The position numbers were made by a program, and so were the translations under genes. Under the pieces are notes generated by a model. That model saw only the letters and a program-made list of their open reading frames with translations. It was not told the origin of the DNA and searched no databases. A DNA stretch of 64,000 nt, taken from Candidatus Micrarchaeia archaeon (GTDB taxonomy: Archaea; Micrarchaeota; Micrarchaeia; Burarchaeales; JACRGF01). Below are positions 7,072-34,489 of the stretch, one piece after another (the stretch's first letter is position 1; the number at the start of each line of letters is the position of its first letter). The stretch spans positions 41,067-105,066 of the forward strand of contig JAWAFC010000002.1 in the NCBI GenBank assembly GCA_038890815.1. Reading direction: 5' to 3'.

Positions 7072-8288
7072 AGGAGGCTCTCGTAGAGCTCGATGGTCTC
7101 GTGAGCTATTTTTTCCCATGTGAATAGCTTTTCCACGCGCCGCCTGCCCGCCTCGCCCATGGCCTTGGCTGCTCCCTCATCTTCAAGCACACGCGTGAGG
7201 GCCGCGGCTATGCTCTCTGGCTTGTCAGGTTCGCACCAGAAGCCGTTCTTTCCATCCAGCACGCTCTCGCGCAGCCCGCCCAGCCCCACCACGACGGGCT
7301 TGCTCATCGCCATGCCCTCGAGCGACACAATGCCAAAAGGCTCATAGCGCGATGGCGCGCACACCACATCGCAGCAGGCATAGAGCAACAGACGCTCCCT
7401 CTCCTCCACCCATTTGTCTATCAGCACCACCTTATCCTTCAGCCCGTGGCGCACGATGAGCGAGCGTATCTCATCGGCCATCTCGCCACGCCCCAGGATG
7501 ACCAGCCTGGCCTTCGGCACTCTGGCGAGCACGAGCGGCATGGCGCGCACGAGGGAATCAACGCCCTTAACAAAGGTGAGCCTGCCAGTGAACAGGATGA
7601 CCTTGTCATCCTCGGCAAAGCCCAGCCGCTGTCTGCAGGCCGCCCTCTCCTCCGGCGGGAAGTTGGCGATGTTGTACTTCTTTTCATCAACGCCATTCCA
7701 CATCACACGGATGCGCGCGCCCGGGAAGTTCAGCACGTGTAGCTCCTCGCGCATGGCATAGCTGACAGTTATGATCATGTCAGCGTGCTGTGCGGTGGTG
7801 TACTCGAGATTGCGTATGGTGGAGGAGCCCCGCCCCCCGCTCCTGCCGTGCTCTGTGGAGTGCACATGGAAAACCATCGGCTTGCCCGTGTTCTTCTGTG
7901 CGATGACCCCGGCGATGGCCGACAGCCAGTCATGGCACACCACAAGGTCGTAGTTCTCTCTCTTCGCGATTTTGTTGACGAAGAGGTTGGCACTCAGGAA
8001 ATTGTAGGTCAGCACGTCACCAAAGAAGCGCAGGCCCTCGCCCCATCTGCGCAATTCCTCATCGACAAAAACGGGCAACACCGCGGTGGCGTCGGCGACG
8101 ATCGGGCGATGCACATCTATCCTCTCGCCGATTTCCTCGAAAGTCGGCAGATTGGCCCCCTCATTCATGGTGAATACCGTGACCTCATGGCCCATGGCTG
8201 CCAGCTGGGCTGTCATCTCCGCGGCATACGTGCCGAGGCCGCCGATGAAGCGCGGCGGATATTCCCACACGAAGTAGGCGAGCCGCAT
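7068..8288 (-). CDS. GT4/GT5-type glycosyltransferase (glycogen/starch-synthase-like)
   Basis: The start is chosen at MRLAYFVWEYPPRFIGGLGTYAAEMTAQLAAMGHEV (complement 8286-8288), which has a TTTAAA box ~25 nt upstream (8311-8320 region). The C-terminal GT-B motif is RYEPFGIVSLEGMAMSKPVV. The 98-codon upstream extension of the track ORF is Arg/Ala-rich with no homology and is rejected. Confidence 0.65.
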   Translation of the reverse strand: MRLAYFVWEYPPRFIGGLGTYAAEMTAQLAAMGHEVTVFTMNEGANLPTFEEIGERIDVHRPIVADATAVLPVFVDEELRRWGEGLRFFGDVLTYNFLSANLFVNKIAKRENYDLVVCHDWLSAIAGVIAQKNTGKPMVFHVHSTEHGRSGGRGSSTIRNLEYTTAQHADMIITVSYAMREELHVLNFPGARIRVMWNGVDEKKYNIANFPPEERAACRQRLGFAEDDKVILFTGRLTFVKGVDSLVRAMPLVLARVPKARLVILGRGEMADEIRSLIVRHGLKDKVVLIDKWVEERERLLLYACCDVVCAPSRYEPFGIVSLEGMAMSKPVVVGLGGLRESVLDGKNGFWCEPDKPESIAAALTRVLEDEGAAKAMGEAGRRRVEKLFTWEKIAHETIELYESLL

Positions 8289-20130: not shown

Positions 20131-20180
20131 CGTTCCCTAATCGGATTCTGATTTTAAATACTGTCGGAGATTAGTTTTGC

Positions 20181-20290
20181 GCGGGGGTGCCGGAGCCTGG
20201 TCAATCGGGCAGGCCTTAGGATTCGATGGCTGAAGGATGAGAAAGCCTGTGCGCTTAGGCGCTGCAAGAGTTCAAATCTCTTCCCCCGCA
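20181..20290 (+). tRNA. tRNA-Leu (UAG) with ~23-nt intron at 37/38 and long variable arm
   Basis: Acceptor GCGGGGG/CCCCCGC+A; anticodon stem CAGGC/GCCUG with loop CUUAGG[intron]A; variable arm UGCGCUUAGGCGCUGCA; T arm AAGAG-UUCAAAU-CUCUU. No CCA. Confidence 0.75.
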
Positions 20291-20295
20291 CTCCT

Positions 20296-20493: not shown

Positions 20494-20583
20494 GCCCCAG
20501 TAGCTCAGCGGTAGAACGGCGTTCCGCCAGAGAGCGCTCGCCTTGTAAGCGAGATGTCGGGAGTTCAAATCTCCCCTGGGGCT
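20494..20583 (+). tRNA. tRNA-Thr (UGU) with a ~16-nt non-canonical intron in the D-loop/D-stem junction
   Basis: Acceptor GCCCCAG/CUGGGGC+U; anticodon arm CUCGC-CUUGUAA-GCGAG; T arm GGGAG-UUCAAAU-CUCCC. About 16 extra nt (ACGGCGUUCCGCCAGA, containing the GGCG-UUC-CGCC hairpin) sit between D-loop and D-stem 3' strand. A TATA-like gttttataac lies at 20481-20490. Confidence 0.65.
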
Positions 20584-24486: not shown

Positions 24487-24636
24487 GGGGAAAATTTCTG
24501 GAAAGCTAATAAAGTTTTTTCGGAAAATTGCTTCATGTTAACAAGGGCCGATGTGAACGCGCTGGTTTTCACAGCCACAATGGCTGCCTCCTTTTTGCTG
24601 TTCATCCTACTTCTGAGAGCGCTATTCGGCTAAGCC

Positions 24637-25030
24637 TTATCAGAACCAATCGATGACTTCGTCGCTCGTAATAGGAACCTACGGTTCCTATTACCTCCCT
24701 TTTTATTTGCGCGAGGCTCGCTCCTCGTCGAATCGTTGGTTCCGATACCTCCAAACCGCGGGAACCTACGGTTCCCCCAGTTCCAGGTTCCTCCTGACCC
24801 CTCCCTTTTCCATCAATGCTTTTATCCGAGGGGGGAAGGTCAAGGACGAAGGGGGGATACTTCCCCCCTTTGTCTTATCAGAACCGCCAGCGCGGTTCCG
24901 ATACCTCCAGCAACCATTTTCCACCAATGCTTTATCCGAGGGGGGAAGGTCAAGGACGAAGGGGGGAAACCTCCCCCCTTTGTCTAGGGAAGGTCAAGGA
25001 CGAAGGGGGGATACTTCCCCCCTTTGTCTA
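24637..25030. repeat. Hairpin-rich composite repeat element, copy A (~394 bp), with an internally triplicated ~48-bp unit. It abuts the 3' end of tRNA-Thr(GGU).
   Basis: It shares modules with copy B at 33673-33980: ttatcagaaccaa..cg...cttc.tcgctcg.aataggaacc(tac/gta)ggttcctattacctccctttttatttgcgcgaggctcgctcctcgtc...tcgttggttccgat; atcagaaccgccagcgcggttccgatacctccagcaacc; and gaggggggaaggtc[a/t]aggacgaaggggggatacttcccccctttgtct (three copies in A, one in B). Confidence 0.75.
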
Positions 25031-25152
25031 AGCCCCTGGCGAGGATTGAACTCGCGACCTTGTGCTGTATGGCTTCTCGTTGGATGCTACCATGCACACG
25101 CTCTTTCGTGGAACCCGCTTTCCGCGTGGCTCTACCACTGAGCTACAGGGGC
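25031..25152 (-). tRNA. tRNA-Thr (GGU) with two introns: ~29 nt between D-arm and anticodon stem (non-canonical) and ~21 nt at 37/38
   Basis: The 122-nt gene hand-folds to a 72-nt mature tRNA. Acceptor GCCCCUG/CAGGGGC+U; D arm GCUC-AGUGGUA-GAGC; anticodon stem UGUGC/GCACA with loop AUGGUA[intron]A; T arm GCGAG-UUCAAUC-CUCGC. Confidence 0.65.
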
Positions 25153-25155
25153 GTT

Positions 25156-26463
25156 TTATTTAGTTGCAAAAGGGTTTTTGAATTCTATTGTGGCGCTACG
25201 ATCCCGGCCTACAGAGATGGCATAGATCGGCACGCCGGTCAAACGGCCCACGCGCTTTACATAGGCGCGCAACTCGGGAGGCAGCGCGCCGAATCCTTTT
25301 CTGGCGAGCCGTTGCCATTCCTCGTGTGATAGCTCTCGCCAGCCCGGCATCTCTTCATACACCGGCCTGCATTTGGCGAATTCCCGTGGGCTCGATGGAA
25401 CGCTGAACAGCCTCTTTCCTTCAAGCTCATAAGCCGTGCACATCTTGATTTTCTCAAGGCCGCCGAGCACATCGAGCTTGGTTATCACAAGGCCTGTCAA
25501 GCCATTCACGCGGGCGGCATACCGCAGCGAGACGATGTCAAGCCAGCCACACCTCCGTGGTCTGCCCGTGGTGGTGCCGAACTCAACACCTTTTGTGCGG
25601 ATCCACTCGCCGGTCTCATCGGTCAGCTCGGTGGGCACAGGGCCTTCGCCAACTCTTGAGAGGTAGGCCTTTGCCACACCAATAATCTCGTTGATGGCTG
25701 TGGGCGGAACGCCTGCCCCCGTACAGGCTCCGCCGGCAGTTGTGTTGCTGCTCGTGCCGAATGGATACAGGCCGTGGTCGATGTCGAGCATCGTGCCCTG
25801 CGCACCCTCAAACAGCACCCGCCGACCTCGTGCGAGCGCGGCGCACAGCTCGGCGCTCGCGTCACCGACGTATTTTTTCAGTCTCTCCCCGATGGCCGCG
25901 TATTCCCGGAAGATCTCCTCCTCGCTCGGAGCGATCGTCTCGCCGTAGGCCGCCAGCACCCTTTTTTTTATCTCGTACAACGTGGCCAGCTTTTCCTTGA
26001 ACACCTCCCTGTCCACGAGCTCGCACATACGTATGCCCAGGCGTGCAACCTTATCGGCATACGTTGGGCCTATGCCACGCATTGTGGTGCCCGCGCGCCA
26101 CTTTCCCTTTAGCTTCTCCTCAATGCCATCGAGCTGCTTGTGAAAAGGCAGCACAACGTGCGCGCGCTCGCTGATGAGCAGGTTTGGCTCGATGCCCTCC
26201 TCGCGCAGCTTGGCGAGCTCGACCTCGAGCAACAACTTCGGATCCACCACCACGCCGTTGCCAATGATCACCCTCTTCCCACGTATGGCGCCGCTCGGCA
26301 TGATGTGGAACTTGTGCTCGTGACCGCCAACCACAACGGTGTGGCCGGCATTGCTGCCGCCGTTGAACCGCACCACGATGTGTGCGCGCTCGGCGTAGTA
26401 GTCAACTATTTTGCCCTTGCCCTCATCACCCCACTGCGCGCCGACTACGACAACTCCGCTCAT
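25156..26463 (-). CDS. purA: Adenylosuccinate synthetase
   Basis: Start at MSGVVVVGAQWGDEGKGKIVD (P-loop-like GDEGKGK), then GNGVVVDP and GTTxRGIGP blocks. The 7-codon upstream extension in the track ORF is less likely. Confidence 0.85.
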   Translation of the reverse strand: MSGVVVVGAQWGDEGKGKIVDYYAERAHIVVRFNGGSNAGHTVVVGGHEHKFHIMPSGAIRGKRVIIGNGVVVDPKLLLEVELAKLREEGIEPNLLISERAHVVLPFHKQLDGIEEKLKGKWRAGTTMRGIGPTYADKVARLGIRMCELVDREVFKEKLATLYEIKKRVLAAYGETIAPSEEEIFREYAAIGERLKKYVGDASAELCAALARGRRVLFEGAQGTMLDIDHGLYPFGTSSNTTAGGACTGAGVPPTAINEIIGVAKAYLSRVGEGPVPTELTDETGEWIRTKGVEFGTTTGRPRRCGWLDIVSLRYAARVNGLTGLVITKLDVLGGLEKIKMCTAYELEGKRLFSVPSSPREFAKCRPVYEEMPGWRELSHEEWQRLARKGFGALPPELRAYVKRVGRLTGVPIYAISVGRDRSATIEFKNPFATK

Positions 26464-26500
26464 ACAAAAAGCTTTAACGCCCAAGCTTTAAACAATTGTC

Positions 26501-27091
26501 ATGCCCAGGGCGTCCAAAGTCCGCGTCAGGCTCAACCCTCTGCTCGCCGGGTTGGCGAGGGGCCCGCAGGTAATGCTGCCAAAAGACATCGGGCTTGTTC
26601 TGGCATACACGGGCGTGGGCAGGAACAGCACTGCGGTGGATGCCGGTACGGGCAGCGGATTTTTGGCCATAAGCCTGGCGAATGTCTGCCGCAGAGTGGT
26701 CACCTATGAGTGGAGGGAGGAATTCGTAGAGCTGGCAAGACGGAATATAGAAAAAAGCGGGCTGGCGAATATAGAGCTCAAGCATGCGAATGTTTTCGAT
26801 GGCATTGCTGAGAGGGAAGTTGACCTCGTCACCCTCGATCTGGCTAACCCAGAGCGGGCACTGCCGCACGCTGCCTGCGCGCTGAGGCAAGGGGGCTTTG
26901 TGGTGGCCTATGTGCCGCACGCCGAGCAGGCGAGCGCTTTTGTGAGAGCAGTCAGGGCAAGCGGGAGCTTTGAGGAGCCTTTTGTCCTCGAGGCCATCGT
27001 ACGCGAGTACCTCGTCAGAGAGGCTGGCTTCAGGCCTGAGAACAAGGGCATCACGCACACGGGCTATCTGTGCTTTGCGAGAAAGAGATGA
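26501..27091 (+). CDS. trmI: tRNA (adenine-N1)-methyltransferase TrmI/Gcd14-like SAM-dependent methyltransferase
   Basis: 196 aa with the SAM-binding motif VDAGTGSGFLAISLA and a DLANPE block as in archaeal TrmI. Confidence 0.6.
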   Translation: MPRASKVRVRLNPLLAGLARGPQVMLPKDIGLVLAYTGVGRNSTAVDAGTGSGFLAISLANVCRRVVTYEWREEFVELARRNIEKSGLANIELKHANVFDGIAEREVDLVTLDLANPERALPHAACALRQGGFVVAYVPHAEQASAFVRAVRASGSFEEPFVLEAIVREYLVREAGFRPENKGITHTGYLCFARKR

Positions 27092-27095
27092 TGGC

Positions 27096-27521
27096 ATGCT
27101 GGTCGTCAGGAGAGCGGTGAAAAAGGATTTTTCACGCATTCGCGCGCTCGATGTGCTGTGTGAGGGCGTGCGGCTGGCCGACGGCGAGCACACTTGGAGG
27201 GAGTGGATAGCGCACGCTGATGTGTGGGTTGCTGAAAAGGGCAGGAAGCTGCTCGGCGCGGTAGTGCTTTTTCCGACAAAGCGCGGCGACTGGTATCTCC
27301 ACAAGATTTTCGTACACCCTCGCCATAGGCACATGGGAATTGGAAGCGCGCTGCTCGCCAAGGCGCTGCCCGCCCTGAGGGGGAAGAGGATTTTCCTCAC
27401 CGTTTATCCGGGCTTTCCGGGCGCCGTGCACCTCTACAAGAAGTTCGGCTTCAGAATAAAGAGGCTGGAGAGAGGCTACTACAGGAAGAGCGAGCCGAGA
27501 TATGTCATGGAGAGGGCATAG
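27096..27521 (+). CDS. GNAT-family N-acetyltransferase
   Basis: Start at MLVVRRAVKKDF, 5 nt after the trmI stop. The acetyl-CoA-binding motif is HPRHRHMGIGSALLAKA (Q/R-x-x-G-x-G/A). Confidence 0.6.
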   Translation: MLVVRRAVKKDFSRIRALDVLCEGVRLADGEHTWREWIAHADVWVAEKGRKLLGAVVLFPTKRGDWYLHKIFVHPRHRHMGIGSALLAKALPALRGKRIFLTVYPGFPGAVHLYKKFGFRIKRLERGYYRKSEPRYVMERA

Positions 27522-27527
27522 CCTGCC

Positions 27528-28109
27528 CTACCTCTCCCTGAACCTCTTTTCGACAGTGCTCCAGTCAATGGCCTCGAAGAAAGCGGCGATGTAGTCGGCT
27601 CGCCTCAGCCCGTAGTCGAGCATGTAGGCGTGCTCAAAGACATCCATGACGAGGAGGGGCGCGCAGCCCGCGAGATGCCCAACGTCGTGCTCGCCTATCC
27701 ATGTATTGAAGAGCCTGTCTGTCTCCCTGTCATAATACAGGATGGCCCAGCCGATGCCGCGCATGCCGCCCACGCCCTTGAAGTCCTTCTCCCAGCTCTC
27801 GAGGGAACCGAAGTCCTCGACAATCTTTTTGGCAAGCCTCGCGCCTGCCTCGAGTTTCTTCCCCCCTTTTGCCATGTTTTCAAAATACAGCTCGTGCAGC
27901 CTCATGCCGTTGAACTCCCAGCCGAACCTGCGCCTGAGCTCGGCATACTCGGGCGTGCCAGGCGCGAGCGAGGCCAACGCCTCGGCTAGCTTGTTGGTAT
28001 TCGCCACATAGCCCTGGTAGAGAGTGAAGTGGTTTTTTAGCAGGGCGTCGCTGAAGCCTTTTGTTCCAAGCAGGTGCTCAAAATTTTTTGCCTCGTATGC
28101 CATCGTCAC
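27528..28109 (-). CDS. sod: Fe/Mn superoxide dismutase
   Basis: 193 aa; metal ligands sit in the conserved blocks (H in LHxxKHH-like FTLYQGYV..., DVFEHAYMLDY with D-x-W-E-H-A-Y-Y-like motif). Confidence 0.8.
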   Translation of the reverse strand: MTMAYEAKNFEHLLGTKGFSDALLKNHFTLYQGYVANTNKLAEALASLAPGTPEYAELRRRFGWEFNGMRLHELYFENMAKGGKKLEAGARLAKKIVEDFGSLESWEKDFKGVGGMRGIGWAILYYDRETDRLFNTWIGEHDVGHLAGCAPLLVMDVFEHAYMLDYGLRRADYIAAFFEAIDWSTVEKRFRER

Positions 28110-28112
28110 ACC

Positions 28113-28676
28113 CTATATCTTGCCCACCAATTCCAGGCCAGGCTTAAGAGTTTTTTGGCCCGGCCTCCACGAGACTGGACATACCTCTCCCTTGTGTTCT
28201 CTGACATACCTCGCTGCCTGAAGCTTTCTCAGGATTTCTTCGGTGTTCCTGCCTATCGCGTTTGAATGCATCTCAAAAGACTTTATCACGCCATCCGGAT
28301 CGATGATGAATGTGGCGCGCACTGAGATGCCTTCCTCCTCAATATAAGTGCCGTATTCCCTGCACACCCTGCCACCCGGGTCTGCGAGCATTGGGAACTT
28401 GACTTTCTTTATGGCCGGGGAAGTATCGTGCCAGGCTTTGTGCACGAAGACCGTATCGGTGCTGATACTCAACACCTCGGCCCCCAGCTTTTTGAACTCG
28501 TCATAGTAATGCGCGGCCTCCTCGAGCTCGGTGGGACAGATGAAGGTGAAGTCCGCTGGATAGAAAATCAGCACGACCCACTTTCCTCTGTAGTCCGATA
28601 GCCTTATCGTCTTTTCCTTCCCATCGTGAAACGCCTTCAGTTCAAACTCTGGCGCCTTCTGGTCTACCCTCAACAT
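28113..28676 (-). CDS. Peroxiredoxin (Prx/AhpC-TSA family), likely 2-Cys
   Basis: The FTFICPTELE peroxidatic-Cys motif. Start proposed at MLRVDQKAPEF (complement 28674-28676), 25 nt from the palindromic A/T box. It sits directly upstream of sod on the same strand. Confidence 0.75.
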   Translation of the reverse strand: MLRVDQKAPEFELKAFHDGKEKTIRLSDYRGKWVVLIFYPADFTFICPTELEEAAHYYDEFKKLGAEVLSISTDTVFVHKAWHDTSPAIKKVKFPMLADPGGRVCREYGTYIEEEGISVRATFIIDPDGVIKSFEMHSNAIGRNTEEILRKLQAARYVREHKGEVCPVSWRPGQKTLKPGLELVGKI

Positions 28677-28688
28677 GTCATCACCCAT

Positions 28689-28737
28689 TATCCTTTTGAA
28701 GTTAAAATTTTTAACTTTTTGGTTCGAAAAAAATACT
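28689..28737. promoter_or_regulatory. Divergent promoter region with a perfect palindromic A/T box gttaaaatttttaac (28701-28715) between the prx-sod operon and the Lrp/AsnC regulator gene
   Basis: The palindrome is ~25 nt from both the Lrp ATG (28738) and the proposed Prx start (28676). Confidence 0.4.
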
Positions 28738-29166
28738 ATGGATAGGAGAGATCTGATCATATTGAAAGCTCTTGTGGATAATGCGAGGGTCTCCTACACT
28801 GAGCTGGCCAGACGGCTACGCATCACCGAGGCTGCCGTGCGCAAGAGGGTGAAGAGGCTTGAGGCGGAGGGTGTGGTGCAGCGCTACACCGCGGTGGTGG
28901 AGCCTGTGCTGCTGGGCTTTGCCGCCGTGGCGATCGTTGGCGTGGACACGAGGCCGGACGCGCTGCTGCGGACGCATGAGGCACTGAAGCGGATTAAGAA
29001 CGTCAGATACTCGGCGCTCTCGACTGGCGACCACATGCTGTTGTTCGAGGCGTGGTGCAGAGATCAGGCCGAACTGGGCCGCCTAGTCAGGCGCGTCGCG
29101 CGCATGCCCGGCGTGACGCGCGTGTGTCCCGCCGTGCTGATGAAAAGGCGAGAGATGGCTGAGTGA
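28738..29166 (+). CDS. Lrp/AsnC-family transcriptional regulator
   Basis: MDRRDLIILKALVDNARVSYTELARRLRITEAAVRKRVKRLEAEGVV is the canonical Lrp HTH. The C-terminal RAM domain is present. Confidence 0.8.
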   Translation: MDRRDLIILKALVDNARVSYTELARRLRITEAAVRKRVKRLEAEGVVQRYTAVVEPVLLGFAAVAIVGVDTRPDALLRTHEALKRIKNVRYSALSTGDHMLLFEAWCRDQAELGRLVRRVARMPGVTRVCPAVLMKRREMAE

Positions 29167-29384
29167 ATGCAGGGGGAGTAAGGCGAGTCCACGCCTCAAA
29201 GCAGCATCCTTTTGATGCTCCTTCACGCACTACTATGTGTAGCTTTCGGCGTTTAAAAACTCTGCATCACTATAGTGCGGTGACGAGGACGGACTCGTCC
29301 ATTGCCGAAGACTATAAAGCGAAGGAGGGACAGCGCGCTTCCGGAAAATTCGAGGTATGCGAAAGTATTAATAATGCATAGTGC

Positions 29385-29645
29385 TTGCTTATATTAGTGA
29401 AAACTAATATACTCCGAGCAGTCGCTGATTCCACGCGGCTTGAGCTACTTAGAAAAATAAGCGACGGAGAAGTGTGCGCATGCGCTCTGCCGAATTGCGT
29501 TGGCGTTAGCCAGTCCGCGGTTTCCCAACACCTCAAGGTTTTGTTGGACGCGGGTTTGGTGAAAAGGCGCAAGGAGGGAGTGAAGAGGTTGTATTCGCTT
29601 TCTTCGTTGGGCAGAAAAGTTTGGAAAGACATTTCGAGGTGGTAG
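29385..29645 (+). CDS. arsR: ArsR/SmtB-family transcriptional regulator (TTG 29385 per ORF track; GTG 29397 is a plausible leaderless start)
   Basis: LRAVADSTRLELLRKISDGEVCACAL...VSQSAVSQHLKVLLDAGLVKRRKEG matches the ArsR HTH with a CxC metal(loid)-sensing site. A TATA-like gtattaataatgc lies at 29365-29377, and a 22-bp palindrome tatattagtg-aaaa-ctaatata spans 29390-29411 over the start. Confidence 0.7.
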   Translation: MLILVKTNILRAVADSTRLELLRKISDGEVCACALPNCVGVSQSAVSQHLKVLLDAGLVKRRKEGVKRLYSLSSLGRKVWKDISRW

Positions 29646-29646
29646 C

Positions 29647-29874
29647 GTGAGAGTGGAAATTCTTGGTGGCGGTTGCGCCAACTGCAAGAAACTTGAAGAA
29701 AACGTGAGGGCCGCGCTGGCAAAAAAAGGAGTCAATGCAGAGGTAGTTAAAGTGACTGACTTCGGCGAAATAGCGTCTTACGGCGTCCTGCGCACGCCTG
29801 CACTGGCGATAGATGGCAAAGTAGTGGCGGAAGGAAGAATTCCCTCCGTTGAAGAAATAGCAAAGATGTTGTGA
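29647..29874 (+). CDS. Small thioredoxin-fold (redox-active disulfide protein 2-like) protein
   Basis: 75 aa with a GGCANCKK CxxC motif and thioredoxin-fold length. It is sandwiched in the ars-like operon. Confidence 0.6.
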   Translation: MRVEILGGGCANCKKLEENVRAALAKKGVNAEVVKVTDFGEIASYGVLRTPALAIDGKVVAEGRIPSVEEIAKML

Positions 29875-30839
29875 AGCGAATGGGCGCGCTCGAAGACTTT
29901 GGTGCATGGGTTGTTTACGGCGTACTTGGCATGGCCCGTGACAATCCGTTTGCCGAAGCGCTGAATTTTTTCATCTACGACAACATCAAGATATTCCTGT
30001 TGTTGTTCGGAATAACTTTTGTCGTCGGTATAATCCGCAGTTTCATTACGCCCCAGAAAATAAGGGATTTTCTCGCCAGCAGGAAAAACGGGTCGGGAAA
30101 CGTCTTGGCCGCGTTGCTTGGAATACCCACTCCCTTCTGTAGTTGCTCGGTGATTCCGTTGTTCATCGGCTTCATTCGCGCCGGCGTTCCCCTCGGAATA
30201 ACCTTTTCTTTTCTCATCGCGTCTCCGCTCATAAACGAAGTGGCGGTAGTTCTCTTGCTTGGCTTGGTGGGGTGGGAAGTGACGGCGCTTTACATTGGCA
30301 TCGGGTTTGTCGTCGCCGTCGTGGCTGGATTTGTTTTGGGAAAGCTCGGCTTGGAAGACCAGATAGAAGTTTTTGTCAAAGCGTCCCAAGTCAAGTCTGC
30401 TGGCGACGAAAAACGTTTGACGTGGAGAGAACGCGCGCGTACTGCTCTCGAAGAAAGCAAGACCATTACTAGGCAAGTCGCGCCGTACATAATCGTCGGC
30501 ATTGCAGTGGGCGCTCTTATTCACGGCTATGTGCCGCAGGAATTTTTTCTGCAGTACGCCGGCCCCGGCAATCCTTTCGCTGTGCCCGTAGCCGTGTTGA
30601 TAGGAATTCCCCTGTACTCCAATGCCGCAGGAACAATTCCAATTATTCAGGCACTGATGACAAAGGGAATGGCGACGGGAACTGCGTTGGTGCTCATGAT
30701 GTCCATCACCGCCCTGTCTTTTCCACAGTTGCTGATTCTGCGGAAAGTCGTGAAAACAAAACTCCTTGTTTACCTGGTTGTGATATTGGCGGTTTCTTTC
30801 ATGCTGATAGGATACTTGTTTAACGCAATACTACAATGA
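29871..30839 (+). CDS. arsP: ArsP-type permease (organoarsenical efflux permease family, COG0701)
   Basis: 322 aa, ~8 TM helices, and the TPFCSCSVIP motif corresponding to the conserved TPFcSCS signature of ArsP. Confidence 0.65.
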   Translation: MKRMGALEDFGAWVVYGVLGMARDNPFAEALNFFIYDNIKIFLLLFGITFVVGIIRSFITPQKIRDFLASRKNGSGNVLAALLGIPTPFCSCSVIPLFIGFIRAGVPLGITFSFLIASPLINEVAVVLLLGLVGWEVTALYIGIGFVVAVVAGFVLGKLGLEDQIEVFVKASQVKSAGDEKRLTWRERARTALEESKTITRQVAPYIIVGIAVGALIHGYVPQEFFLQYAGPGNPFAVPVAVLIGIPLYSNAAGTIPIIQALMTKGMATGTALVLMMSITALSFPQLLILRKVVKTKLLVYLVVILAVSFMLIGYLFNAILQ

Positions 30840-30851
30840 CGGTGGTTTTAG

Positions 30852-30937
30852 TGCAGGGGGAGAGATTTGAACTCTCGAAGGCCCTGAGGCCACAGGGTCT
30901 TAAGCCCCGCGCTTTTTCCTGGCTCAGCCACCCCTGC
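30852..30937 (-). tRNA. tRNA-Leu (UAA), no intron
   Basis: 86 nt. Acceptor GCAGGGG/CCCCUGC+A; anticodon arm CGGGG-CUUAAGA-CCCUG; long variable arm (GGCC-UCA-GGCC hairpin); T arm GAGAG-UUCAAAU-CUCUC. Confidence 0.75.
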
Positions 30938-30953
30938 AAAAAATGAGCGCTTG

Positions 30954-31685
30954 TTAGCCATACATGGGCCCGAGCTCGCCGGTCTCCCTGTATTTCTGGT
31001 GGGCTGTCTTGGCGTGCTCGAGAATCTCCTTTATCTTTGTCTCGATGTTCCTAGCCTCGGCTATCAGCTCCTTGGTCTCGATGGGCAGGCCCGTGATGTC
31101 GCGCACGGCATCGAGCACCATGGCGGCACCTCTCGGATCTAAATACTCTGGCTTTGCCTCTGCGAGCAGCGAGATGGCGGGGAAGCCCTGGATGGCGGCC
31201 TCGGCCATGAGCACGCCAGACACGCCGGTTGTCGCGCCCTCTTTGATAAGCCGCACGCCGGCCGCCTCCAAACGCCTGAGCAGTTCCCTGTTGGTGGCTA
31301 TGCCAAACACCTCATCTTGCTCTCCCCTGATGCCTATGCCACCTACCGAGATGATCTCCCTCACCCCCCGCCTCTTGCTCCAGGCCAGAATCTCGTGGGC
31401 CAGCTCATGCACCGTACTGAGGGGCACGATGAACTCGCTGAAAAGCACAATGAGATTGAGCTTCTTGCTCTTGTAGATGCGCGCTGGGTGCAGCGGCTGG
31501 TACTCGTGTACGGCTGCGATGGGCGGAAAGCGCTCGCTGGCGATGTAGCCCAGCAGCTCCATGTCAAACTTCTCCACAAGGTAGGAGGCCGCAATCGTCC
31601 CCACGAGGCCGATGCCCGGAAAGCCCTCGATGAGCAGTGGCCTGTTGAGATCAAACTTGCTCGTCTCGATAATCCGCACTGGCAT
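30954..31685 (-). CDS. PAC2-family protein (proteasome-assembly-chaperone-like, COG1938)
   Basis: 243 aa. The N-terminal LIEGFPGIGLVGTIAASYLVEKFDMELLGYIASERFPP matches the PAC2/PbaA family N-terminal block. Confidence 0.55.
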   Translation of the reverse strand: MPVRIIETSKFDLNRPLLIEGFPGIGLVGTIAASYLVEKFDMELLGYIASERFPPIAAVHEYQPLHPARIYKSKKLNLIVLFSEFIVPLSTVHELAHEILAWSKRRGVREIISVGGIGIRGEQDEVFGIATNRELLRRLEAAGVRLIKEGATTGVSGVLMAEAAIQGFPAISLLAEAKPEYLDPRGAAMVLDAVRDITGLPIETKELIAEARNIETKIKEILEHAKTAHQKYRETGELGPMYG

Positions 31686-31716
31686 GGTGGAGAATTGGGC
31701 AAGGATTTATAAAAGG

Positions 31717-33486
31717 CTAAGCCAGCAGGTGCAGGCCGAGCGATAGTTTGAACACGCCGAGCGAGAGGGGAGCGAGGATGAGGAAATACACGAGCGCCTT
31801 GCGTGGGGAGCCCTCCTGAAAAGCCACAAGCAAGCCGGACAGGAAAGCATAGATAATGAGGTAGGCCTGCACGGCATCGAGCGTGGCCGAGAAGAGCGTG
31901 AGGCGCTCAGTAGCCGGCAGCGCGGAGAAGAGCGCGCCTGCTGACAGATTGAGCTCTGCCACCATGTTGGCAACGAGCGCGAGTATGAAGGGAACGAGCA
32001 CACTGCCTCCTATCAGCATCGTGTACTTCTGCATGGCCAGCAGCGCCGCGCGCTCCCTCACGAGCGCGGCAAAGCCCATGATGTCTTCGGCCGTCTCGCG
32101 CACGGCATGTTCGAAAGCCGCACCGGCCGACCAGCCAGCCGCGAGAAGGTGTGTTGCACGTGAGAGCAACAGCGAGTCATTGCGTTCGCCTATCTCAAGC
32201 ACAGCCCGCTCAAGCGGCATGCCCGACCTGACCTGGTTGAGGGCCATGCGGAACTCCTCGCTGAGGGGCCCGAAGCCAGAGCCGGCAATGCTCTCGAGAA
32301 TTCTCTCTACCGAAACACCCCTGGGAAACGAGGAGGCCTGAAACAGCGCATCGGGCAGAAACCTCTCAAGCTCTTTTGTGCGCTGCTCGAGCCTGTAGGA
32401 AAGAGAGAGATAGGTGAGGGCTGGCAGTGCCAGGGGAATTGGGGAGTAGGCCCGCATCGCTGGAGCAGACAGCGAAAGCGCAAGCAGAAGGAGAAAGCAC
32501 AGTATGCCTACGGCGAGGGAGAGGAGGATGAGGCGCTTAGCTCCAAAATGGGCGAAAGGGGCAGGGACCACGGCATCGAGGCGAGCCATTTCCTCCTCGG
32601 AAAGGGGGGATGAAAGGGAGCTGTGCAGAAAGGGTGGGGCTTTCATGCGTATCGCCATGATGACAAGCAGGCCGAGCAAGGGAAAGACCACGAGATAGGC
32701 GAGCCAGATATCGCTCGCGGTGAAAATGGGCGAAAAAATCGCCGAACCCACCACAACGTATGCCTGAAAGAGTGCGGGAATGACGCACGCCACGGCGAGA
32801 AAAAGCAGGCCGAGAAATGACAGCGCAGCCGCATACTCACGCGCGCCAGCTTTCTGAACATCGATGAGCTCATCGGCCAGCCGCTTGAGGGCCTCACCCT
32901 GCCCGCCATGCTGATAGGCTGCCACGAGGTGGGCGACAGCGCGCCTAAATGCCAGCGAGCCCACGCGGCCGGCCAGCCTGCGCAGGGCATCGGGAAAGGT
33001 GGCCCCACCTTTCTTTACCTCATTGAGCACGAGCGCGAGCTCGGCCGAGGTCTGGTAGCGCATGCGCGCCGCGCGCTCGATGGCCTTCTCGAAAGGCGTA
33101 TTGAGCGAAAGCTCGGCGGCCAGAAAACGAAGGAGGAAAGGAAGCTCTGCCTCCAGCTGCGCAGCCCGCCTTTTCGCCTGAAATGCTGGCAAGGATTTGA
33201 GCACGAGGAAGATGAGGGAGAAGGATAGCAGGGAGAGCGACAGGGATGTCGGCGCATCGCGCAAGAGGAAGTAAAACGCGCCGAAGAGAACAGAGGCAAG
33301 GAAAAGCGAGAGTAGGAGGGAACGGAAGAGATAAGAGCGCGCGGGGATGCCCATGCCTGCCTGCTCAAGCTGCGACTGTAGGCACGCGGTTTCCTGCCTA
33401 GTGAAAAGCCAGCTCACGCGAGGTTTTAAATTGGCGGTAAATTTATGCTTGACTGCGATTATCGAAAAACGAGCTCTTCCCTGCAT
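31717..33486 (-). CDS. Type II secretion system F-domain membrane protein (FlaJ/TadC-like platform protein); start uncertain (33486 or ~33354)
   Basis: Two T2SS-F-like repeats (e.g. ...ALRRLAGRVGSLAFRRAVAHLVAAYQHGG...), ~9 TM helices, and a length typical of archaeal FlaJ/TadC homologues. No adjacent secretion ATPase is in the window. Confidence 0.55.
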   Translation of the reverse strand: MQGRARFSIIAVKHKFTANLKPRVSWLFTRQETACLQSQLEQAGMGIPARSYLFRSLLLSLFLASVLFGAFYFLLRDAPTSLSLSLLSFSLIFLVLKSLPAFQAKRRAAQLEAELPFLLRFLAAELSLNTPFEKAIERAARMRYQTSAELALVLNEVKKGGATFPDALRRLAGRVGSLAFRRAVAHLVAAYQHGGQGEALKRLADELIDVQKAGAREYAAALSFLGLLFLAVACVIPALFQAYVVVGSAIFSPIFTASDIWLAYLVVFPLLGLLVIMAIRMKAPPFLHSSLSSPLSEEEMARLDAVVPAPFAHFGAKRLILLSLAVGILCFLLLLALSLSAPAMRAYSPIPLALPALTYLSLSYRLEQRTKELERFLPDALFQASSFPRGVSVERILESIAGSGFGPLSEEFRMALNQVRSGMPLERAVLEIGERNDSLLLSRATHLLAAGWSAGAAFEHAVRETAEDIMGFAALVRERAALLAMQKYTMLIGGSVLVPFILALVANMVAELNLSAGALFSALPATERLTLFSATLDAVQAYLIIYAFLSGLLVAFQEGSPRKALVYFLILAPLSLGVFKLSLGLHLLA

Positions 33487-33672
33487 TCAGAGCGCATCCG
33501 CAACAGCAAAAGATCGTGGCGCAATCCATTTAAACCTCGCCCGTGTAAAATGTTCGGTCAGCGGCCATAGGGGAGGGGCCAGACCCGAACCCATTCCGAA
33601 CTCGGCAGTGAATCCCTCCCACGATGTCGCTTGTACTGCCATGCGGCGGGAAAGCGCATTGCTGCTGGCCAT

Positions 33673-33980
33673 TATCAGAACCAACCGACGGCTTCCTCGC
33701 TCGCAATAGGAACCGTAGGTTCCTATTACCTCCCTTTTTATTTGCGCGAGGCTCGCTCCTCGTCATATCGTTGGTTCCGATCGGAACCGCCAGCGCGGTT
33801 CCGATACCTTCAAACCGCGGAAGGGCTCCGCCCCTCCCCAGTTCCAGGCTCCTCCTGACCCACCCCAATCAGAACCGCCAGCGCGGTTCCGATACCTCCA
33901 GCAACCCCTTTTCTATCCTTTATCCCCGAAGAGGGGGGAAGGTCTAGGACGAAGGGGGGATACTTCCCCCCTTTGTCTAG
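33673..33980. repeat. Hairpin-rich composite repeat element, copy B (~308 bp), in the same orientation as copy A
   Basis: See copy A. It shares >80% identical modules in the same order, with a single copy of the terminal ~48-bp unit. It lies in the intergenic space between two minus-strand genes. Confidence 0.75.
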
Positions 33981-33982
33981 GG

Positions 33983-34489
33983 TCATTGCGCTTTCAGCTG
34001 CAATTCTCCGACCGCTATGCGAACCTCTTCCGGCATTATTGTGAAATGGTGGCGGATGAAGAGAACGCCCTCGAAGCTCTCGTTTGTGTTGAATTGCCTG
34101 TTCTCGCCCGCCTCGTTTCGGCAAGGCACGGGCACAAGGTCGGTGGCTCCTGCTTGTGGGATGGACTTGTTCATCTTTGTCCATTCAGCAGCGGGGAGCA
34201 GACGCACATCGCGCGCCTTGCTCGAGCAGTACAGGCCCGTCACGACTATCTCGCCTGGCATGGCATTCCTCACCCTCAGCGTGAGGTAGCCGTCCGTTGA
34301 TAGCTTGGCTGAACAGCTCAAGCCTGGCGGCAACAGGCACTCCTGCGAGATATTTTTGTCGGCCACTCCGGCGCACTCGCTCAGGCTATCGGCGAGCGAG
34401 CCATTCAGACAGACAAAACTACCCTGAGGCGCTCCGGTGCATCCAAGCAGGATGCCAAGCAGCAGCACAGCGGCCAGCCCTCTCATCAT
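33983..34489 (-). CDS. Secreted lipoprotein-like protein, unknown function
   Basis: Signal MMRGLAAVLLLGILLGC (lipobox-like LLGC), with several Cys and N-x-S/T sequons. Confidence 0.45.
   Translation of the reverse strand: MMRGLAAVLLLGILLGCTGAPQGSFVCLNGSLADSLSECAGVADKNISQECLLPPGLSCSAKLSTDGYLTLRVRNAMPGEIVVTGLYCSSKARDVRLLPAAEWTKMNKSIPQAGATDLVPVPCRNEAGENRQFNTNESFEGVLFIRHHFTIMPEEVRIAVGELQLKAQ

Follow-up and report, generated by a model that had tools for sequence, protein, structure and literature searches.

Two copies of a composite repeat, A and B, occupy intergenic spaces in the Micrarchaeia DNA described here, a stretch of 64 kb that was analyzed as a whole and is called the window below (Table 1). 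Copy A starts 3 nt past the stop codon of a conserved 32-aa ORF, and its right end lies 1 nt from the 3' end of a tRNA-Thr(GGU) gene. This tRNA gene was missed by ARAGORN and also by Rfam at the gathering threshold. Copy B starts 2 nt past a 5S rRNA gene, which is missing from an earlier note on this DNA, and it ends 4 nt from the stop codon of ORF168, a convergent gene on the minus strand. The joins between the 32-aa ORF and tRNA-Thr and between 5S and ORF168 are corroborated by synteny in a related genome, Cand. Micrarchaeia JZ-2_201808_bins_178 (GCA_038870455.1; hereafter the sister MAG, with L-numbers for fetched loci), in which the 5S-ORF168 adjacency is kept. An apparent similarity of A and B that extends 22 nt further to the left, into the 3' end of 5S and the small ORF, was rejected as chance because these nucleotides encode the C-terminus of the small ORF, which is conserved in the sister MAG where the repeat is missing.

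Table 1. Positions of the two repeat copies, the modules of copy B, neighboring features and intron-borne M4 units (window coordinates unless a fetched locus is named)
Feature	Position	Strand	Description
32-aa ORF	24535-24633	+	conserved; MLTRADVNALVFTATMAASFLLFILLLRALFG; gene call in Logan, with conservation in the sister MAG
Copy A	24637-25029	+	module order M1, M5a, M6-M3, M2, M6'-M3, M3'
tRNA-Thr(GGU)	25031-25152	-	two introns; Rfam 46 bits; manual parse and alignment to the MAG orthologue
Synteny breakpoint relative to the sister MAG	33467-33527	.	separates the FlaJ promoter region from the 5S promoter
5S rRNA gene	33557-33670	+	Rfam RF00001, 63 bits
Copy B, composite repeat	33672-33978	+	module order M1, M2, M5a', M2, M6'', M3
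Copy B, M1	33672-33781	+	long imperfect hairpin with outer arms ATCAGAACCAACCGA...TCGTTGGTTCCGAT
Copy B, first M2 hairpin	33780-33811	+	ATCGGAACC-GCCAGCGC-GGTTCCGAT, then ACCTTC
Copy B, M5a'	33812-33866	+	outer helix of GAACC/GGTTC type, variant inner hairpin GGAAGGGC-tcc-GCCCCTCC, then CCCCAGTTCCAGGCTCCTCCTGACCC
Copy B, second M2 hairpin	33868-33899	+	equals the M2 of copy A and of sister-MAG loci L002 and L009
Copy B, M6'' and single terminal M3	33900-33978	+	M3 unit is GGGGAAGGTCTAGGACGAAGGGGGGATACTTCCCCCCTTTGTCT
ORF168	33983-34489	-	167-168 aa; no Pfam hit; 73% identical orthologue in L016
M4 in tRNA introns, sister MAG	L015:3540-3700		orthologue of window 25031-25152
M4 in tRNA introns, sister MAG	L015 near 7900-7960		orthologue of window 20494-20583
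M4 in tRNA introns, sister MAG	L004:1890-1960; L008:1135-1210; L016:2500-2580		

Copy B is assembled from hairpins of several kinds. The interior of its M1 holds a perfect hairpin, AATAGGAACC-gta-GGTTCCTATT, together with a T5ATTT tract. Its first M2 has GGTTCCGAT at either boundary, and copy A has no M2 at the equivalent position. The M6'' module corresponds, in degenerate form, to the left arm of the M4 hairpin described below, and the single M3 matches M3 units of L005, L006 and L009 at 100% identity. Within the window, the terminal hairpin GACGAAGGGGGGATACTTCCCCCCTTTGTC is matched four times (three times in copy A and once in copy B), GAACCGCCAGCGCGGTTCCGATACC three times (once in A and twice in B) and AATAGGAACCnnnGGTTCCTATTACCTCCC twice. 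The three most distinctive module patterns are confined, within these 64 kb, to copies A and B, and module patterns gave no match in 100 dinucleotide shuffles. A repeat scan of the entire window yielded no further non-genic repeat family. Both copies out-fold shuffled controls on both strands (z-scores of -7 to -10), and for copy B the z-score is -7.0 on the plus strand and -9.6 on the minus strand. Pairs of G·U type occur on the plus strand in M3 and on the minus strand in M1 and M2, and fold energies fail to discriminate between the strands.

The earlier note had described copy B as a second copy of a composite repeat that has the same modules as copy A, in the same order and orientation, but a single terminal unit. 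That a second copy exists is borne out by the absence of its patterns from shuffled sequence and by its collinearity with copy A; its composite nature is confirmed by the module anatomy, and it does end in one terminal M3. In pairwise alignment, the two copies are collinear and co-oriented at a mean column identity of 79%, so this part of the description stands, whereas the module content is not the same. Relative to copy A, copy B carries an extra 24-nt M2 hairpin following the first module and has no counterpart of two units of copy A, one of 70 nt (M6+M3) and the final M3 of 44 nt. The arrangement and count of units within each copy come from a single MAG assembly across a repeat. The inner hairpin of M5 also differs, reading GGAAGGGC-tcc-GCCCCTCC in copy B and GGGAACC-tac-GGTTCCC in copy A. 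The change of a hairpin loop from tac to gta with preservation of the stem had been taken as a hint of selection on structure, and this did not hold up. According to the repeat finder, the 25-nt palindrome of one copy is, over its full length, the exact reverse complement of that in the other, at 100% complementarity. Because such a flip is a single event that leaves the stem undisturbed, the loop difference is no evidence of selection.

Copies A and B belong to a sequence family that is multi-copy and dispersed. An exact-pattern scan for M3 across 185,579 species, each represented by one genome, returned nine loci, all of them in one other MAG, the sister MAG introduced above. This genome contains at least 11 further intergenic module sites on at least 10 contigs. 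BLAST searches conducted module by module add sites in L003, L015 and L016, and in the fetched loci they delineate about 15 sites, at every one of which the modules are co-oriented and arranged head-to-tail. Several contigs of the sister MAG terminate within repeats. For the source organism, three independent Logan unitigs have an end within copy A or B (window positions 24699, 33702 and 33953), as multi-copy sequence breaks short-read assembly.

Searches beyond these two genomes returned no further members. None of the modules is present in the loci examined from more distant Micrarchaeota. A loop-degenerate M3 pattern produced two matches in a scan of JGI metagenomes, both unrelated, one being a terminator in an AT-rich contig and the other a tract of low complexity, so the family appears to be absent from that collection. 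Scans of IMG/VR with M3, M2, M5a and M4 gave no hits and thus no sign of a viral or plasmid origin. In Rfam 15, including permissive scans of both copies, only 5S rRNA and tRNA reach threshold; the hits on the repeat are generic hairpins that fall 40-80 bits below gathering. Exact-protein look-ups found the source organism in one sample only.

The family comprises about six modules of 25-115 nt. Each is a hairpin or a half-hairpin, many are formed around GAACC/GGTTC stems, and they follow one another head-to-tail with fixed polarity, their number and combination differing between arrays. M1 forms a long imperfect hairpin, ATCAGAACCAAYCGA...TCGTTGGTTCCGAT, whose apical part varies; in the window, its apex is a perfect hairpin of 10-12 bp that is followed by the T5ATTT tract. 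M2 shares the ends of M1 but closes them over a short loop. In M5, an outer GAACC/GGTTC helix is combined with an inner hairpin, which occurs in at least four sequence versions, with pairing kept and four pairs changed on both sides. M3 has the form G6-N-G6-loop-C6 and terminates in ...CCCCCCTTTGTCT. M4 has the form TTCCGTCAACGCTTTT-stem-loop-AAAAGGGTTG, and a GC hairpin and a T-run often come after it. The sister MAG has M4 in abundance and the window has none, although the M6 of copies A and B is its degenerate left arm. Two other identities for the repeat, an ORB-like replication origin and a C/D-box sRNA, were rejected on account of the many dispersed copies, and also because there is no dyad ORB core in the first case and no acceptable C box in the second.

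Module sequences are far more conserved between the two genomes than is orthologous DNA, with an identity of ~95% for modules versus 81% for orthologous sequence. Among 15 M3 units, identity is 95% within as well as between genomes. Forty of the 44 positions are invariant, and variation is limited to one linker position and the loop.

Occupancy at orthologous sites differs between the two genomes. The relevant loci of the sister MAG were fetched by way of purA, FlaJ and HMG-CoA reductase homologues, and its DNA is 81.2% identical to the window over 27.7 kb. At site A, purA, tRNA-Thr, the 32-aa ORF, a metallophosphoesterase gene and a DUF2666 gene follow one another in the same order in both. 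The site is empty in the sister MAG, where the stop codon of the 32-aa ORF directly abuts the 3' end of tRNA-Thr without any trace of a repeat. In the window, the corresponding position holds an insert of ~393 nt flanked by AAGCC or CTAAGCC (5-7 bp), of which the empty site has a single copy. The longer form, CTAAGCC, lies at 24630-24636 and 25028-25034; its leading CT is ambiguous because M3 always ends in ...TCT, and AAGCC is the unambiguous part.

At site B, the sister MAG keeps the order 5S-ORF168-HMGR with only a remnant of the repeat, such that the 5S gene is followed by 27 nt and then by the stop codon of the ORF168 orthologue. These 27 nt correspond to the first 27 nt of M1 (window 33673-33699), and ~280 nt (33700-33980) are missing. 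Because half a hairpin arm remains, the difference was probably caused by a deletion in the MAG lineage. The family is carried by two genomes only, so that insertion and deletion are not always separable, and the direction of change was assigned by parsimony alone. The remnant itself (L016:9109-9135) is identical to copy A (24637-24662) and has four differences from copy B (33673-33699). This match suggests either homogenisation between copies or independent insertions at the 3' end of the 5S gene.

Some inserts are flanked by direct target duplications. In addition to the 5-7 bp at copy A, a duplication of 10 bp is found in L005, where an M4 unit harbors a 47-nt M3 unit that has a copy of TCCGTCAACG on either side, and one of 9 bp accompanies the internal M2 of copy B. 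The longest is 45 bp and occurs at L001:6607-6820, where a 129-nt M5-M3 element lies between two perfect direct copies of a gene 3' end. Several sites have no evident flanking duplication, and the absence of a fixed duplication length fits no known transposase. The L001 element is wedged between the stop codon of one gene and the TATA box of the next, and its target duplication is unusually long for prokaryotes.

We consider copies A and B to be independent members of a lineage-specific, dispersed family of modular hairpins in a small clade of hot-spring Micrarchaeia that would have spread duplicatively and non-autonomously, a reading to which we assign a probability of roughly 0.7. According to this proposal, the modules would spread by duplication as non-autonomous DNA elements, either through mobilisation in trans or through copying by template switching during replication or repair. 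New units may land preferentially in or next to existing units and in this way give rise to composites, and units would also be lost through deletion. The arrays are found directly after stop codons and where tRNA, 5S and protein genes have their 3' ends, mostly in the gap between two convergent genes, and they would survive only in such spaces, the few that a compact genome tolerates. Because nearly all T-runs and hairpin-plus-T tails are on a single strand, a plausible side effect is polar termination or insulation of transcription, which would not be needed for the modules to exist.

The defined ends of the elements argue for the involvement of a site- or structure-specific enzyme. No transposase-like or multi-copy mobile-element ORF was found in an all-against-all comparison of ORFs from ~190 kb of window and fetched loci, and the annotated orthologous loci contain no Pfam families for transposases, integrases or reverse transcriptases. 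The Pfam results for 52 window ORFs are a summary of the 25 most frequent families, from which a single transposase hit could escape.

A more specific proposal can be formulated, although we hold it to be rather improbable. The family would constitute a new mobile archaeal element with ends ...CCCCCCTTTGTCT on the right and CCGAACC... or ATCAGAACC... on the left, which inserts in one polarity at gene 3' ends, produces duplications of 5-45 bp and invades tRNA introns in the form of M4. If true, this would provide a directly observable route for the growth and spread of non-canonical tRNA introns in Micrarchaeota. What remains is a clade-restricted, sequence-conserved family of modular hairpins in an ultra-small DPANN genome. 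If the modules are mobile, their filled and empty sites are recent enough to work out an insertion mechanism that falls outside the standard transposase signatures, and the clade allows a test of repeat invasion as a contributor to the tRNA intron load of Micrarchaea.

By analogy, the family appears comparable to BOX, REP/BIME or MITE elements. BOX elements of Streptococcus pneumoniae are dispersed, structured, non-coding repeats with the arrangement boxA-boxB(n)-boxC and without a dedicated transposase. The likeness lies in short intergenic composites that are built from few module types with fixed polarity and variable internal number. Strong predicted secondary structure, dispersed multi-copy occurrence, non-coding character and the lack of a dedicated transposase are likewise common to both. 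In contrast to BOX elements, the Micrarchaeia repeats are found in an archaeal DPANN host and not in a bacterium, and no sequence relationship is known. They also have more module types, some of them nested, a related module in tRNA introns and flanking duplications of variable length.

With REP, BIME and REPIN sequences (PMC3733652, PMC2817692, PMC3116915) the family shares palindromes of 20-40 nt, G+C-rich stems and mosaic intergenic clusters at gene 3' ends, and also species-specific families whose occupancy differs between related genomes. However, REPs carry an unpaired GTAG or CGTC tag (PMC3733652), whereas M3 starts with GACG (CGTC on the other strand), which is paired with TGTC/TTTGTC in the stem. 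REPs typically occur as inverted (head-to-head or tail-to-tail) dimers or in alternating orientation, whereas the Micrarchaeia units are all head-to-tail at the 15 sites. No RAYT gene (IS200/IS605-like Y1 HUH) was seen in the window and the fetched loci, and copy number is so far in the tens and not in the hundreds.

MITEs have been reported at high density in some DPANN genomes (PMC11602168). Like them, the repeats are non-coding, dispersed in multiple copies, intergenic and polymorphic in presence or absence between relatives. The M1 sub-module has imperfect inverted termini of 15-16 nt, and some copies have flanking direct repeats. The inverted termini ATCAGAACC...GGTTCCGAT are found in both M1 and M2 and extend to ~15 nt in M1. 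The composites (M1...M3 and M5b...M3) are without a convincing TIR, having only a weak match of 8 in 10 between ACCCAGGGGG and ACAAAGGGGG. MITEs have a target site duplication of fixed length (2-10 bp), whereas duplications here are 5-7, 9, 10 or 45 bp or are lacking. No parent IS was found in ~190 kb, and the units are mostly smaller than MITEs and are concatenated in a single orientation. Membership among MITEs or REP/RAYT elements therefore fails on duplication length, on unit orientation and on the lack of an unpaired GTAG/CGTC tag (definitions from PMC3733652 and PMC11602168).

The placement and polarity of the composites bear on whether the modules are instead selected host cis-elements, such as polar terminators or insulators, stabilisers of RNA 3' ends or protein-binding arrays, that are present in many copies by virtue of their function. 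Composites are positioned within 0-4 nt of gene 3' ends. In 7 of 7 defined cases, a gene on the opposite strand has its 3' end directly at their right (M3 or M4) end; their left end abuts a co-oriented 3' end in six cases and a 5' end in three. Runs of four or more T residues number 29 on the repeat strand and 8 on the opposite strand, and the terminator-like hairpin-plus-T matches inside A and B are all on the plus strand. In the window, both the 5S gene and the small ORF have the T5ATTT tract ~60 nt downstream, and the same genes have no element in the sister MAG. The closeness of the composites to gene 3' ends and the asymmetry of the T-runs are in keeping with a host function, as is the M5 helix that is maintained through changes on both of its sides. 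Likewise, in the 15 M3 copies, 40 of 44 positions are invariant although the two genomes are only 81% identical, which could reflect selection on each copy for a cellular function.

Even so, we regard host function as an unlikely reason for the existence of the modules. Sites A and B are empty or nearly so in a sister genome that has the same flanking genes, which indicates that the elements are dispensable at both sites. Moreover, the number and combination of modules vary freely, and the loci examined from outgroup Micrarchaeota are wholly without them. For transcription termination in archaea, oligo-T suffices and hairpins of this kind are not needed. Host function and mobility are compatible and not mutually exclusive.

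The family is tied through M4 to differences in the intron content of tRNA genes. In the sister MAG, the introns of at least seven tRNA genes harbor M4, which runs antisense to the tRNA in every case and in some cases is present as a tandem pair. In the window, the introns of the orthologous tRNA-Thr and tRNA-Trp genes are shorter and have no M4. The same module also forms tandem arrays after M3 in intergenic composites. This pattern looks like a repeat invasion that enlarges tRNA introns. Similar cases are known from the archaeal Thermoproteales, whose transposed or duplicated tRNA introns are cited in PMC3239211, and from Micrarchaeum ARMAN-2 with its intron-rich tRNAs (PMC3239211). The common features are near-identical short sequences that recur across the introns of different tRNA genes of one genome and an intron content that differs between close relatives. 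Relative to these cases, M4 differs in being present also in intergenic arrays and in having apparently been added into pre-existing introns, seen in the sister MAG only, and not as a whole intron.

A further reading takes its cue from these introns. The modules would be related to bulge-helix-bulge tRNA introns and would spread at the RNA level by way of reverse splicing or reverse transcription, with the intergenic composites as by-products. The recurrence of M4 in one orientation relative to the tRNA, its tandem arrays in composites and its absence from the orthologous window introns agree with such a route. The varying length of the target duplications and the common 3' ends are reminiscent of retroposition, and Micrarchaeum tRNAs are highly intron-disrupted (PMC3239211). 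Nevertheless, we find this route very doubtful. No reverse transcriptase was seen in the window and the loci examined, and the window has no M4, copies A and B holding only its degenerate left arm as M6. In addition, the orientation bias in tRNA genes might be explained by selection against T-runs on the sense strand, which would be terminators for archaeal RNA polymerase.

Several further observations concern tRNA genes near the repeats. The tRNA-Thr(GGU) gene (minus strand) and the tRNA-Trp gene at 20494-20583 (plus strand) of the window have similar short introns at the same D-arm position (…GTTCCRC.A.AGAGCG…), which suggests intron duplication between tRNA genes. An unannotated tRNA-Leu-like gene, probably with an intron, is located at window ~20170-20292 (plus strand) and has the opposite orientation at L015:8262-8350. 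A truncated M5-M3 composite at L015:8150-8261 abuts the 5' end of this gene, indicating a small local inversion beside a repeat.

The earlier note had proposed that the two copies bracket the 8.6-kb block between them (25031-33672) as a substrate for recombination or as footprints of cassette capture. Indeed, the two copies are directly repeated, measure 300-400 nt and share stretches of at least 90% identity, a synteny break relative to the sister MAG occurs close to copy B, and a low-GC segment inside the block is swapped for an unrelated gene in that MAG. Against these points, the genes of the block are housekeeping genes (purA, trmI, prx-sod, tRNAs, PAC2 and FlaJ) and include no recombinase, and a deletion between A and B as direct repeats would take out essential genes. 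The gene content is the same in the sister MAG except for the arsR-trx-arsP segment and the region upstream of FlaJ. The core order FlaJ-PAC2...trmI-purA is kept in two outgroup Micrarchaeota (FlaJ 42-43% identical), whose loci contain none of the modules, and this conservation in distant Micrarchaeota argues that the block is not a captured cassette.

Judged from such comparisons, the interval between A and B is ordinary ancestral housekeeping chromosome. The note had also looked to synteny for a rearrangement breakpoint at the repeats. The order across site A is unchanged without the repeat and thus offers no breakpoint. A break near B does exist, but it lies outside the copy, ~150 nt to its left and beyond the 5S gene, and the sister MAG keeps the 5S gene, the M1 remnant and ORF168 together. 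On this evidence, neither copy is a rearrangement junction. The repeats are also dispersed across many other loci and are not confined to the ends of the block, which, with the conserved order and the lack of cargo or recombinase genes, sets the arrangement apart from an attL/attR pair or a composite transposon; the note's own conclusion that this is not an attL/attR duplication at a tRNA gene was correct. A role for A and B as functional ends, be it of a cassette that was captured or is mobile or of a segment prone to deletion or inversion, is therefore scarcely credible and, on the sequence comparisons, largely refuted.

The break itself most likely arose in the sister lineage. In the outgroups, FlaJ adjoins a PGM/sugar cluster; in the window this cluster is 7 kb from FlaJ, and in the sister MAG the cluster stands in a different context. 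The placement of FlaJ beside the PGM/sugar cluster in the outgroups makes rearrangement in the sister lineage the parsimonious choice. Upstream of FlaJ, where the window has the 5S gene, the sister MAG has genes for HD, a 133-aa protein, FlaI, DUF192, UPPS and GGR, and upstream of its 5S gene it has TBP, L21e and Rpb4; none of these genes is found in the window.

Two other features of the window deserve mention. The lower-GC arsR-thioredoxin-ArsP segment (29186-30864) adjoins tRNA-Leu(UAA) at 30851-30937. In its place, L013:7839-9094 carries an unrelated gene of 372 aa with no Pfam hit, a variable slot beside a tRNA gene. To the right of the repeats, positions 37756-63400 are occupied by a large cell-surface sugar cluster with genes for glycosyltransferases, epimerases and NTP-transferases, and it includes three asparagine-synthase-like paralogues that are 37-44% identical.
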